Virus record (IMG/VR): IMGVR_UViG_3300032373_000057
Coordinates: 1-36,848 of that record
Reading direction: 5' to 3' (one strand)
Length of the DNA: 36,848 nucleotides
Source of the DNA: a virus
Taxonomy: Duplodnaviria > Caudoviricetes
Numbering within the stretch: the stretch's first letter is position 1; each line of letters starts with the position of its first letter. Position numbers and translations under genes: made by a program. The notes beneath the pieces are model-generated. The model ran no database searches and had not been told where the DNA came from. It saw only the letters and a list, made by a program, of their open reading frames with translations. Below, piece by piece: positions 16,351 to 36,418 of the stretch.

Positions 16351-16806
16351 TTACATAGGCGCAAGATGATCCAGAAGAAATGTCTCTGCTAAATCAAGAA
16401 TAACATCTTGATCCTGTGCATTCACGCCAAGGATATTCCGCGCAGGTATATTTCTATCATCATTACCATAGTGCATGGTGGCTGCGCGAATATCACTGCT
16501 GCCAACGATAGCTTCAGATGCAGATGTTTGTGTATGAAAAGAATCCATCAACTGACCATGCTCAACAAGAATCAAATCAGCATTCTTTGTTTTACGTTCA
16601 CGCGTCGATTCAGCCAACTGCTCCCAGGGCAAGCCATCAGGGTCAACCTGATCCTTAAACCTTTGCTTGGTGGATTCCAAAAGATGTTCGCCGATATCAG
16701 CAAACAATGGCGCCATGTTATGCCCCACCTGTTGTAGTTTACCAAACACTTGCTGCATTTGCCTATCATCCACATCAATCGATATGAGCTCACTTGCACC
16801 TGCCAT
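16351..16806 (-). CDS. Virion morphogenesis protein (Mu gpG family)
   Basis: PL..DIGE.L..ST..RF....DPDG.PW..L, IL...G.L..S, IPAR..LG. Confidence 0.93.
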   Translation of the reverse strand: MAGASELISIDVDDRQMQQVFGKLQQVGHNMAPLFADIGEHLLESTKQRFKDQVDPDGLPWEQLAESTRERKTKNADLILVEHGQLMDSFHTQTSASEAIVGSSDIRAATMHYGNDDRNIPARNILGVNAQDQDVILDLAETFLLDHLAPM

Positions 16807-16822
16807 GATTTACTCCTAAACT
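16794..16822 (+). promoter_or_regulatory. Sigma70-type promoter for the candidate small RNA
   Basis: TTGCAC (16794-99), 17 nt, TAAACT (16817-22), pointing against the late operon. Confidence 0.6.
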
Positions 16823-16828
16823 TCGCTT

Positions 16829-16913
16829 ATGCTCATTGTGTACTAGAGGTTCCCAGTACCGTGCAATGATACACAGAGTTAAGGCTGCGCTGGGACGTGG
16901 CCTTTCTTTTTTT
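16829..16913 (+). ncRNA. Candidate structured small RNA convergent with the MuF-nuclease gene
   Basis: Promoter upstream, hairpin 16833-16869, terminator hairpin 16881-16904 with U-tract. Terminator loop CUGGGA is complementary to UCCCAG (16851-56). Confidence 0.55.
16881..16913 (+). terminator. Intrinsic terminator, + strand
   Basis: AAGGCUGCG/CGUGGCCUU 9-bp stem whose two G-U pairs work only on the + strand, followed by UCUUUUUUU. Confidence 0.7.
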
Positions 16914-18153
16914 AAGGCTCTCGCTTATATAAACGCACACCTACACGATTCTTCTCAATTTTCTGATTCAGTTCATCGACACTCAATGACGCATGTGCCG
17001 TAATACCGTGCCAGCCATTACGATAATCCATGACCACCAATGATGTATAATCTTCATCGCCTACCGTGTAACGCGAAATATAAATGCGCTCCGTAATGGC
17101 TTTCCCTTGCTTGTTGTGCCACACCATGCGTGTCCATATTTCATCAGGGTCTTTTATCGTTTCCGCCAGCATCACAATTTCTTGGCTGCGTGATCGTTTA
17201 CCAATCTTCCAAGAGCCATCGTGCTTTTTAAATAAACTCTCTGATACAACAACCGCTTCGCCTGTAGCATCTGTATATATTGCGTGCTTGCCAATATCTG
17301 CACCAAACGGTTTTAAGAATGCGCGCACATAACCTTCTTCTTGCCCTGCCTGCATCACAGGCAGCAGCTTATTTTTTTCAAATTCACGTGGGGAAGGCAT
17401 CAGGTCACCTGCAGAATTGGCTGGCAACGCTTTTTCAAAGCCGTGAGGTGCGGAGCTTGCAGAGGGGGGCACATGGTGATGTATCCACGCACTGCGGCCA
17501 GGTGCATACGCAAAGCCTGGGCTCACGCCTTCAGGCACATCCACTGTGCGCGGATTGAGCGTGTTGTTGCCCACAAGCACCTTGCGCATTGGAATATCTG
17601 GTGAAATAGCTGGTGACAAACCTTTCTGCTTCATCCGTGTTTTACTCATGCCTGTCACATAACAACGGCAACCCCAACCATTCGGTGGATAGTGCGTATT
17701 CCAGAACGAGTCATCTTTTGATAACACCAAACCATCCCAAGCCAAGTGTTGTTCACGCGGATTGTTGACACCAATCGAATGATGGTACTGCCAGTACTCT
17801 AACTTTTGCAGCTGCTCGTGCCGACCTGCAGCATAAGATGTGCGCAAATTAGTTTCGTAAATCACACGTGTACGCCAACCGCGCTCACCGTTGTATGCCC
17901 AACCATGCTTGGCAACGCTCTTATCAAAGTCCTTGCGGAACTCTGCAAGCGTGGTGCCGTGCTCGATAGCCTTCTGTACAGCTGCTTGCATATCTTCAAG
18001 TAAGGCCATTTTGGTTGCACCTGCAACCACGAATGCGTGGTCATGATTGCTTTGCCAAATGTCAGTCCACCCACGGGTGGGCAGAGCTAGTTTTTTTCTA
18101 AAAAATGCTATCTGTGCATCAAAAGGCAGCGATCCATACTTTGCATCACGCAT
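16912..18153 (-). CDS. MuF (gpF) minor head protein fused to a C-terminal PBECR2-like nuclease domain
   Basis: MuF motifs AFVVAGA, IYETN.RTSY.AGR, H..WDG.VL..DD.FW..HYPPNGWGCRC. C-terminal FL..FGA...D..G...V.S..LF....G.WK..KR.R.....LA.TI.DPDEIW...W.G.T pattern. Confidence 0.88.
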   Translation of the reverse strand: MRDAKYGSLPFDAQIAFFRKKLALPTRGWTDIWQSNHDHAFVVAGATKMALLEDMQAAVQKAIEHGTTLAEFRKDFDKSVAKHGWAYNGERGWRTRVIYETNLRTSYAAGRHEQLQKLEYWQYHHSIGVNNPREQHLAWDGLVLSKDDSFWNTHYPPNGWGCRCYVTGMSKTRMKQKGLSPAISPDIPMRKVLVGNNTLNPRTVDVPEGVSPGFAYAPGRSAWIHHHVPPSASSAPHGFEKALPANSAGDLMPSPREFEKNKLLPVMQAGQEEGYVRAFLKPFGADIGKHAIYTDATGEAVVVSESLFKKHDGSWKIGKRSRSQEIVMLAETIKDPDEIWTRMVWHNKQGKAITERIYISRYTVGDEDYTSLVVMDYRNGWHGITAHASLSVDELNQKIEKNRVGVRLYKREP

Positions 18154-18313
18154 AACTGCAATCTGTAACAGCATTGTAACACGTCAGTGCGCGTTTTCGG
18201 GCTGCCAGTCGGGTGAATACTCGTTTCAACCCGTTAAAATACATCTGTGGCGATTTACGGTGATCATTATGCATTGCTTTTCCCCAGGGAATATTCTCTG
18301 CTGAAGCATTCAC

Positions 18314-24123: not shown

Positions 24124-24353
24124 TGATCTTGTGCTTTACGGTTTTTTTGTATCTTATCAAGTATGGAAAGAAGCTTATCATCATTATCTAAATGTATAGA
24201 GTCACTATGCTTCATACCACTTTTATCTATATAAGAAAGCTTTATGTTTTTTCCAAAATATGCGGTTAAAATAAATCCCATTAGGCGATGAAAGAAAATG
24301 CAAACATAGACTAATATAATTAGTCCTCCTAAGAGAATTAAAGCCTCCATCAT
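24120..24353 (-). CDS. Hypothetical single-TM protein (cargo)
   Basis: 77 aa, N-terminal hydrophobic helix, overlaps both neighbours. Confidence 0.7.
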   Translation of the reverse strand: MMEALILLGGLIILVYVCIFFHRLMGFILTAYFGKNIKLSYIDKSGMKHSDSIHLDNDDKLLSILDKIQKNRKAQDH

Positions 24354-25210
24354 TTCTGTTTCACTTCACTTTTCACATGCGTAATATATCGTGTTGTTGC
24401 AGATCTTGCTATAGTACGACTAACAACTGTTTTTAAATTTACTTCGAACCGGCGCCCAAAAACATAGCTTTCTTCCATATTTAATAGCCTATCTCGAAAT
24501 GCCTGATCTTCCATTTTAACAACATATTCTTTGCCACTTAATTCAATTCGCCAGCCAGTCTTCTTTTTAATGTCAGCCGCAATGAATTTCACTCTAGCAG
24601 AAACATTCTCGTCAGGCTCTTGAGTTTTTGCCAAAGACAATCTTGTGAATGACTCTGATTGAGCCTTGTCTATCTGCAATGCAGGAAAGTCATCCTGCTT
24701 GTCCTTTTTAAATGCAACCGTTGTTGTTCCTTCATCCATAAGTGGAGCCCGCACAATATCTTCAAGAGCATTTCGAATCTTAGGATTGCTTACCAAGGCA
24801 GCCACATCTTTAGGGCAGTTAACAGCGTCACCATTCACATATATCTGAGCCTCAATAGAGTCATCAGCCGACTCTACCGCCATAATTTCCTCACCCTTAA
24901 GCCAGTTGATTGCTCCAATAACAGTTCCAGTTGCTGCTGCTCCACCCAAAAGACCAAGGGGAACTAGAATATTCTTTGCATTTACAAGCGACTGAATGAG
25001 TTCCACTTCAAAGCCAAATGAACCCTCAATAAACTCTGCATTAATGCGAACATCAATAGAGTTTCGCTCACCATTAAGCACATCATTGGTTTCATAGAGA
25101 AGAGTACCAAGAGCGGTTAAGGAATGCCCCAGTGTAATGATATCAATCTCATGCTTTTCATGGGCAGGTCCATCATATAATGCTACAAATTTAGTTGTGG
25201 TTGAATCCAT
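24350..25210 (-). CDS. Hypothetical soluble cargo protein, 286 aa
   Basis: GGGAG RBS before ATG 25210. Y.G.A...HEID...L..SL and A.F.EGSF pattern seen in prophage accessory proteins. Function unknown. Confidence 0.8.
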   Translation of the reverse strand: MDSTTTKFVALYDGPAHEKHEIDIITLGHSLTALGTLLYETNDVLNGERNSIDVRINAEFIEGSFGFEVELIQSLVNAKNILVPLGLLGGAAATGTVIGAINWLKGEEIMAVESADDSIEAQIYVNGDAVNCPKDVAALVSNPKIRNALEDIVRAPLMDEGTTTVAFKKDKQDDFPALQIDKAQSESFTRLSLAKTQEPDENVSARVKFIAADIKKKTGWRIELSGKEYVVKMEDQAFRDRLLNMEESYVFGRRFEVNLKTVVSRTIARSATTRYITHVKSEVKQK

Positions 25211-25281
25211 CTTATTAAAGCTCCCTTTATATTTTAAGTTTTTAACTCTACACCTTACTTGTAACAGTCTGTAGCGGAGAT

Positions 25282-25347
25282 TCAGAGGGGGCTTTGACTG
25301 CATGCTGCCAAAGATATCAAGATCGCAGCTATTAAAATTCGTTTCAT
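25282..25347 (-). pseudogene. Lipoprotein signal peptide remnant or mini-lipopeptide (21 aa)
   Basis: MKRILIAAILISLAAC-SQSPL*. Lipobox LAAC, and ATGA coupling to the upstream small ORF. Confidence 0.55.
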
Positions 25348-35929: not shown

Positions 35930-35970
35930 TTATCGTACTTTATCCCCTATTGTTATCTCACTCTGTATCA
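35930..35970 (-). repeat. Prophage terminal inverted repeat / putative transposase-binding sites (early-gene end)
   Basis: Reverse complement TGATACAGAGTGAGATAA...AAGTACGATAA. GATAA at positions 14-18 and 37-41, as at the other end. Confidence 0.85.
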
Positions 35971-35976
35971 TAGAGT
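35971..35976 (+). repeat. 6-bp target site duplication TAGAGT (right copy)
   Basis: Identical to 197-202 and directly follows the terminal CA. Confidence 0.95.
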
Positions 35977-36418
35977 AACCGACATCAACAAGCCCATTAT
36001 AACCACGCCATCCATCACTATAGATGACACTTTCAATCGAGACTTTCCCTTTAATTACAGCCTGTAAAGTGACTTGCTTACAATCAGGAAAAATCTCTGT
36101 ATAGACTCTTCCATCACGTTCAAATATGCCAAACACAGGTTGTTTTAATGTGCCGAGACCTCGTTTTAGTTTACCATGAAAACCTCGTTGACGTGTCGCT
36201 CCAAAGTAAGCTTCATCGACCTCAACATTGCCAATAATTTGTTCTTTGGCCGCTTCCTGATGAATGTGGATCATTCGACGAAAAACATTGAACCAGTTGT
36301 TGATCGTGTTGCGGTTTAAACTAAGTAAAATCGCTGTTTGAGTAGCATTTACATCGACGCAAAAACACCAAGTAATCTTTCTAACTTTAAAATCACTTAA
36401 CTTACTGTTTCTAAATAT
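35971..36418 (-). pseudogene. IS1595-family (IS1016-like) transposase, 5' part, interrupted by the prophage
   Basis: IFRNSKLS.FK..KI..CF..D..ATQTA.LL.LNRNTIN, VEVDEAYFG, KRG.GT.KQPVFGIFER, SDGWRGYNGLVDVGY. The presumed start codon reads ATA. Confidence 0.9.

Follow-up and report, generated by a model that had tools for sequence, protein, structure and literature searches.

A Candidate RNA Antitoxin Convergent to the MuF-PBECR2 Predicted Nuclease Gene of a Mu-Like Phage

Introduction

Type III antitoxins are described in passages of PMC5086642 as pseudoknots that occlude the active sites of RNases. The locus analyzed here lies in the viral record IMGVR_UViG_3300032373_000057, which was taken whole (36,848 nucleotides, 36.8 kb; hereafter, the window). 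It resembles the ToxIN, CptIN and TenpIN systems, as far as these are covered in the same passages, in that a small RNA with pseudoknot-type pairing is found beside a (predicted) endoribonuclease, and the mode of action is likely the same. Unlike in those systems, the presumed toxin, a PBECR2 domain, is fused to a virion protein, and the RNA is single-copy, downstream, convergent and equipped with its own predicted promoter instead of being an upstream co-transcribed repeat array. A terminator precedes the toxin in ToxIN, CptIN and TenpIN, while here the kissing fold includes the terminator of the RNA itself. The pseudoknot expected of a type III antitoxin is seen here as covariation, although it is of the kissing type rather than the H-type. 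By analogy, the RNA would act like a type III antitoxin and stand outside ToxIN, CptIN and TenpIN by toxin family and gene layout. Another related pair, AbiF and RCd22 from a Clostridioides difficile prophage (portions of PMC12373285), also consists of a prophage RNase-type toxin and a neighboring ncRNA that neutralizes it by direct binding, but that toxin belongs to the Abi_2/AbiF family, which is linked to Cas13 and to the abiF RNA motifs.

The protein side of the locus recalls the MuF polymorphic toxins treated in parts of PMC5576092, with which it shares a MuF N-terminus, a C-terminal toxin-like domain and a place in the head module of temperate phages. A small ORF usually follows downstream of those toxins (89.4% of 191), whereas no small immunity ORF is present downstream here. 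The C-terminal extensions of proteobacterial MuF proteins (Ct_MAD) were left in that work as of unknown toxicity. PBECR domains are predicted BECR RNases for which virion delivery was also predicted (PMC5512222, passages of section 19), and they were placed in a colicin-like group whose characterized members mostly cut tRNA (bioRxiv 10.64898/2026.08.28.747851, passages of section 10). The passages of these two works make no mention of an RNA partner for PBECRs.

The arrangement of the RNA has precedents as well. In txpA/RatA and bsrG/SR4, which belong to prophage elements of Bacillus, the toxin gene is likewise part of a prophage-like element and has a small convergent RNA at its 3′-end, and the 3′-ends overlap by ~75–120 nt (parts of PMC4147584). 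The present locus differs in that the toxin is a 420-aa virion-nuclease fusion and not a small peptide, the RNA shares 2 nt or none with the ORF, and a pairing between loops of the same RNA is conserved. The DUF3800, drum and skipping-rope motifs (parts of PMC5737381) are also structured RNAs that end in a terminator and are tied to one protein family, with both orientations and several unrelated folds found per family; the protein partner is a different one here. The literature found on PBECR domains, with or without RNA antitoxins, does not describe the element, and the supplements of PMC5737381 and PMC10690425, as well as subscription papers, may hold the motif. The sections searched of the catalogue of structured phage RNAs (PMC10690425) contain no mention of PBECR, and the two of its three MuF rows covered both have the RNA upstream of the MuF gene. 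Searches of Rfam 15, which includes motifs of the DUF3800 type, with the window region returned nothing at the gathering score and one sub-threshold terminator match; those with 20 homologous loci gave no match at that score except a distant tRNA, and no abiF-type match. The unit is apparently new to both the literature and Rfam.

Results

The window has a Mu-like gene content that includes the Mu portal, gpF, gpG, the Mu protease, Gp27, GemA, Mor and an AAA ATPase, and gpF is located between the portal and gpG, i.e., in the packaging module. The nearest named relatives of gpF among the matches listed are from Zetaproteobacteria (57–60% identity), and a member of this group is the likely host of the phage. 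The features of the protein-coding part of the locus are as follows.

16351..16806, − strand: gpG (PF05069, virion morphogenesis; Pfam), the next gene and not an immunity ORF
16912..18174, − strand: gpF gene, 420 aa, MuF plus a C-terminal PBECR2 predicted RNase
17656..17994, − strand: MuF domain PF04233, aa 61–173 (E 1.7e-15)
16924..17322, − strand: PBECR2 domain PF18810, aa 285–417 (E 6.5e-25)
17206–17208 (K323), 17188–17190 (R329) and 16999–17001 (T392), together with K326: predicted PBECR2 active-site residues, with a putative catalytic role

The profile search agreed with the sequence-only reading of this DNA, which had recognized the C-terminal extension as PBECR2-like: PF18810 was matched over its full length with 88.1 bits (curated cut-off, 27.1). 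MuF and PBECR2 were the only Pfam domains in gpF, with no membership in the ToxN, CptN or TenpN families, and PADLOC had no model for the protein. At E ≤ 0.001, 2707 proteins of similar length match gpF, and all 120 among the matches listed have both domains. An AlphaFold model of the domain (pLDDT 89.7) shows a helix followed by a meander sheet, with K323 and R329 just before and at the start of helix H59–73 and T392 in strand E120–128. K323, R329 and T392 correspond to the arrangement given for PBECR domains in passages of PMC5512222 (section 19), a basic residue or His located at the N-terminal helix plus Ser or Thr in the last strand, and this putative active site is assigned from conservation and topology rather than from residue-level superposition. 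Structure comparison gave weak matches, the best being a Salmonella toxin-antitoxin chain (Z 4.6, rmsd 3.7, 82 aligned), followed by CDI toxins, colicin D, colicin E5 and BrnT (Z 3.1–3.6), several of which are BECR RNases. Foldseek found nothing in the PDB at E ≤ 0.001, and neither did a sequence search of the PDB. The PBECR2 domain is predicted to have RNase activity.

Elsewhere in the window, a 317-aa ORF (24350–25303, − strand) between the lysis and repressor regions has no Pfam domain and matches the PADLOC candidate defense model PDC-S42 (E 4.8e-38). An IS1595-type transposase fragment (35930–36274, − strand) at the contig end is probably flanking host DNA.

A 105-bp spacer that no ORF fills separates the stop of gpF (16912) from the start of gpG (16806). 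The possibility of an overlooked immunity ORF was therefore rejected, in agreement with the sequence-only reading, in which the spacer holds an RNA unit instead. The positions given there for promoter, loops, terminator and U-tract were all correct on recheck, and the predicted elements are listed below with the first hairpin as revised in this work.

16794..16822, + strand: predicted sigma-70 promoter, TTGCAC (16794–16799), 17-nt spacer, TAAACT (16817–16822)
16829..16913, + strand: predicted small RNA of ~85 nt, its ends inferred from the promoter and the U-tract
16836..16876, + strand: hairpin 1, P1 UUGUGUA (16836–16842)/UACACAG (16870–16876) and C16843–G16868
Upper part of hairpin 1: P1b GGU (16848–16850)/ACC (16858–16860), above an asymmetric internal loop
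16851..16856, + strand: loop 1, UCCCAG, kissing partner
16881..16913, + strand: hairpin 2, an intrinsic terminator with U-tract, stem 16881–16889/16896–16904, loop CUGGGA (16890–16895)

The promoter overlaps the start codon and the RBS of gpG on the opposite strand. At the other end, the U-tract reaches 16913 and shares 2 nt with the gpF stop codon, so that the RNA barely overlaps the toxin ORF, as had been noticed before. The terminator stem (16881–16904) contains two G-U pairs that form on the + strand only. Taken alone, the window gave weak signals: a consensus scanner found no promoter, the terminator occurred at chance frequency, and folding yielded a z of −1.25 for the + strand and −2.67 for the − strand. 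For this reason, homologous loci were collected.

The collection consisted of 83 distinct PBECR2 loci (after dropping duplicates and five truncated ones), seven named phages and, as control, a MuF-domain scan, for a total of 163 distinct loci. They were classed by protein alone: 92 have a full PBECR2 with K323 and R/H329 (intact), 32 have a full PBECR2 lacking one or both (degenerate), 5 are partial or distant, and 34 are MuF proteins without PBECR2. A hairpin finder blind to the pairing partner was run after each stop codon and located a strong hairpin in 80 of the 92 intact loci, which provided 63 unique loops. The longest complement of a loop 15–45 nt further on averaged 5.11 nt within its own locus and 3.72 ± 0.11 nt when loops were permuted, and none of 20,000 permutations reached the observed complementarity (z about 12). 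Complements of at least 6 nt were found for 40% of the cognate pairs versus 4.7% of the permuted ones. Since relatives share loops, this swap test is conservative. The loop sequences differ between loci yet stay complementary, and a chance origin of the structure was rejected.

In 12 sequences that could be aligned, all four helices covary (85% of cells paired; two-sided changes in 23 of 27 pairs), and the kissing helix is paired in 90% of cells with two-sided changes in five of six pairs. RNAalifold found no pairs in a plain MAFFT alignment of 25 divergent sequences, which was out of register. A covariance model built from the 12 sequences (R1) is narrow; it produced 20 matches in 100 sources, all antisense to MuF and including the previously unseen L151 and L102 as well as a tandem pair in L074, and none in the 18 degenerate loci given to it, but it misses most intact loci too. 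As far as sequence comparison goes, the RNA is real as a conserved sequence-structure unit.

These data upheld the kissing of UCCCAG with CUGGGA that the sequence-only reading had proposed and spoke against its first hairpin, UCAUUG/CAAUGA with GUACU/AGUAC. In the five closest sequences, the latter is 74.5% paired, and its covariation score was reached by 43 of 500 shuffles. In the same sequences, the alternative helices P1 and P1b are 90% and 100% paired, respectively, and, when they are counted with the kissing and terminator helices, pairing rises to 94.6% and none of 500 shuffles reaches the score. In the alternative, a short stem closes the loop that holds UCCCAG, and CAAU falls within an internal loop. 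Although the two competing folds are near-equal in energy in the window (−18.8 vs −18.4 kcal/mol), covariation favors the P1/P1b hairpin as the predicted one.

The strand of the unit could also be read from the homologues. In 43 of 63 cases, the hairpin is preceded by 8 nt that include at least five A residues, part of this run being stop and lysine codons, while at least five T residues follow the hairpin in 1 of 63. Of 88 regions, 79 had a higher sigma-70 score on the antisense than on the sense strand and 82 scored above the shuffle mean, after four displaced loci had been shifted by eye and L151 left out. The −10 box lies at stop+75 to +99 in 76 of the 88 regions, mostly as TTG-17-TAnnnT, and the surroundings of the boxes vary, being the interior of gpG at some loci and non-coding DNA at others. 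No such antisense promoter signal was present in 30 degenerate loci. Wobble pairs in the stems favor the antisense strand weakly (55 vs 37). Promoter and U-tract polarity thus give comparative support to the idea of a convergent, separately promoted RNA-like unit.

The loss of the RNA is coupled to the decay of the predicted catalytic residues. A scanner that combines promoter, terminator and kissing loops, with thresholds set after seeing the data, detected the antisense unit in 69 of 92 intact, 2 of 32 degenerate and 3 of 34 PBECR2-less MuF loci; in controls it was positive in 5 of 92 sense strands and 5 of 85 coding sequences. One of the two degenerate positives (L070) has ambiguous bases at the Lys codon, and the other (L201) is from a distant subfamily that keeps basic residues and the Thr. 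The next ORF abuts the stop codon in 3 of 92 intact, 29 of 32 degenerate and 22 of 34 PBECR2-less loci, and the three intact cases are two inserted genes and one spurious ORF call. Among loci with intact residues, none has gpG abutting while lacking the unit both in place and at a displaced position. The absence of the element beside nuclease-less MuF genes (3 of 34 scanner-positive) agrees with the sequence-only reading, and none of the testable observations that it had named as contrary was made.

A FastTree phylogeny of 88 non-redundant full proteins (of 102; L070 and L201 excluded) needs 10 changes to account for the degenerate state, i.e., about 10 independent lineages. On this tree, the scanner-defined RNA is present in 51 of 71 intact and none of 17 degenerate rows, and 7.6–8.4 of 9–10 independent pairs agree, with none opposed (p about 0.008); the result was the same on a MuF-only tree. 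Residues not used for classing follow the same division: T392 is conserved in 97% of intact and 23% of degenerate proteins, K326 in 84% and 3%, and a Tyr at position 332, where the window has Glu, in 60% and 0%. The degenerate copies keep the core residues P343, E345, W347, Y365, W388 and R410. Among named phages, JBD25 and UMP151 of P. aeruginosa are of the degenerate type, and RcapMu, RR1-B, RcWaterboi and EBPR siphovirus 4 have intact residues and the RNA unit.

In five loci, inserted ORFs have pushed the unit downstream and it has nonetheless been kept, with the hairpin 250 (L017), 394 (L151), 481 (L011), 503 (L012) or 907 nt (L225) from the stop codon. Genes have been inserted between the PBECR2 stop and the terminator of the RNA in these loci, among them a GapR-like one in L017 and ORFs with hydrophobic N-termini. 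In L001, a 74-nt deletion removed the last helix and strand of the domain, and the RNA was kept with loops that are changed but matching; the unit is also present in L057 and L060. Two tandem copies were found in L074 (2457–2629), the first inside a read-through extension of the PBECR2 ORF, and the RNA is single-copy elsewhere. In L222 the unit lies inside a C-terminal extension.

The 23 intact loci that fail the scanner comprise 3 displaced ones, 2 found by the covariance model, 11 in which the unit was identified by eye (once 95 nt downstream) and 7 (L023, L044–L046, L049, L090 and L110) in which only a gap plus an antisense promoter is seen and the fold is a different or unverified one. Intact PBECR2, an antisense promoter and a compact fold unlike the two-hairpin type were observed in L023, L044–L046, L049, L093, L110, L211 and L212, which possibly represent structural subclasses. 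Of 33 further loci, many from His-type subfamilies, 15 were scanner-positive, with four re-finds and one likely false case (L232), and most have an antisense promoter and other folds.

Discussion

We consider it rather probable that the spacer yields a ~85-nt kissing-loop RNA that binds and neutralizes the PBECR2 nuclease in the manner of a type III antitoxin. Made from a host sigma-70 promoter independently of the late operon, the RNA would be available both in the lysogen and shortly after DNA entry. Its two loops would pair into a compact tertiary fold that may occupy the K323/R329/T392 pocket, and the nuclease, which is likely packaged in the head along with MuF, would have its effect only in cells without the RNA. 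After decay of the catalytic residues, the protein fold would be kept while the RNA gene is deleted until gpG abuts the stop codon. Here we infer that the unit is transcribed, that the RNA folds, that the nuclease is toxic and that RNA and protein bind. Direct inhibition is preferred because antisense action needs no intramolecular loop pairing, because the unit tolerates displacement, and because no immunity ORF exists and in the intermediates it is the protein that decays first. Protein binding, antisense control and a cofactor role all predict co-loss, which does not discriminate between them.

Antisense control similar to type I systems is rather unlikely. In this reading, pairing of the RNA with the gpF-gpG part of the late mRNA, or interference by its transcription, would reduce leaky expression of the toxin in the lysogen, like RatA and SR4 in prophage elements of Bacillus. 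The convergent layout with its own promoter and terminator does resemble txpA/ratA and bsrG/SR4 (parts of PMC4147584), the RNA is complementary over its full length to the late mRNA as inferred, though only to the polycistronic spacer, and co-loss with the catalytic residues is predicted equally. However, such pairing needs no covariation between the loops of the RNA itself, which is strong, and it is difficult to reconcile with an ORF overlap of 2 nt and with the five loci where the unit lies 250–907 nt away behind other ORFs. Control of the mRNA would, moreover, presumably not protect against protein already made or delivered by a virion.

That the RNA is instead a cofactor, activator or preferred substrate of the nuclease, as part of an RNP with a phage function, seems unlikely. 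An obligate partner of any kind would fit the strict coupling to intact active-site residues and the occurrence of family-specific RNAs beside other PBECR-like domains. Nevertheless, an active nuclease without an immunity ORF would need another restraint, and both the retention of the RNA in L001 after the 74-nt deletion in the domain and the lack of intact loci that abut gpG without the unit fit a history in which the toxin dies first and the antidote is lost later. The sequence-only reading had raised the idea of the RNA guiding the nuclease, which was rejected: the RNA has no variable guide segment, and it shares no exact match of at least 11 nt with the rest of the phage except 12 nt of the terminator tail. 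The same findings argue against a cofactor. Finally, a sense-strand cis element of the late mRNA (a processing site or stabilizer between gpF and gpG) with incidental antisense signals would agree with the better folding of the − strand of the window (z −2.67 vs −1.25) and with the strand symmetry of Watson-Crick loop pairing, but it is very improbable given a U-tract and promoter boxes of fixed spacing and position on the antisense strand in changing contexts.

If neutralization by direct binding is correct, the lack of an immunity ORF in many proteobacterial MuF-nuclease fusions would have an explanation, and PBECR domains, predicted RNases for which no partner was mentioned in the literature found, would gain a testable function. 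The range of RNA-type antitoxins would also grow to take in polymorphic virion toxins as well as a nuclease fold and a gene arrangement that are both new, and active PBECR domains could be predicted from presence or absence of the RNA. The element is carried by a cultured, non-pathogenic lysogen, Rhodobacter capsulatus SB1003 with RcapMu (L124, about 1940–2015, antisense to gene 37), which makes it directly testable. Five short segments of this RcapMu element, along with guessed prefixes of locus tags, were compared with the portion covered of the R. capsulatus sRNA table (PMC5546546, Table S1) and were not found there.

More tentatively, PBECR-fold nucleases on MuF may be a widespread class of virion-delivered toxins with RNA immunity, in which every family has a separate convergent structured RNA; these RNAs are possibly decoys shaped like tRNA that act on colicin-like tRNases. 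A kissing-loop RNA would serve PBECR2, and multi-branch folds would serve PBECR3 and a third family; the injected nuclease would poison any cell in which the incoming DNA is destroyed ahead of transcription of the antidote. Thirteen PBECR3 loci were fetched and 12 examined, one at a contig edge being left out. The domain is internal in 3 of the 12; the nine terminal ones all have a gap, eight with an antisense TTG-17/18 promoter, and five loci (L247, L249, L251, L253 and L254) share a small UUCG-type hairpin after the stop in predicted folds. PBECR3 loci are thus candidates for carrying a second, different class of convergent RNA, judging from their sequences. The third MuF tail family (L152, L165, L186 and L189) has no Pfam domain and is PBECR-like by language-model features, a weak lead. 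In these four loci, ~0–85 nt after the MuF stop, an antisense promoter of the form TTG-17-TA is found together with an RNA-like multi-branch fold that an outer stem closes and whose loops are complementary (GGAA/UUCC), and a His-less relative (L195) abuts gpG. A classical protein-immunity layout was observed in L183, L207 and L208, where a MuF protein with an HExxH peptidase-like tail is directly followed by an ORF of 86–87 aa.
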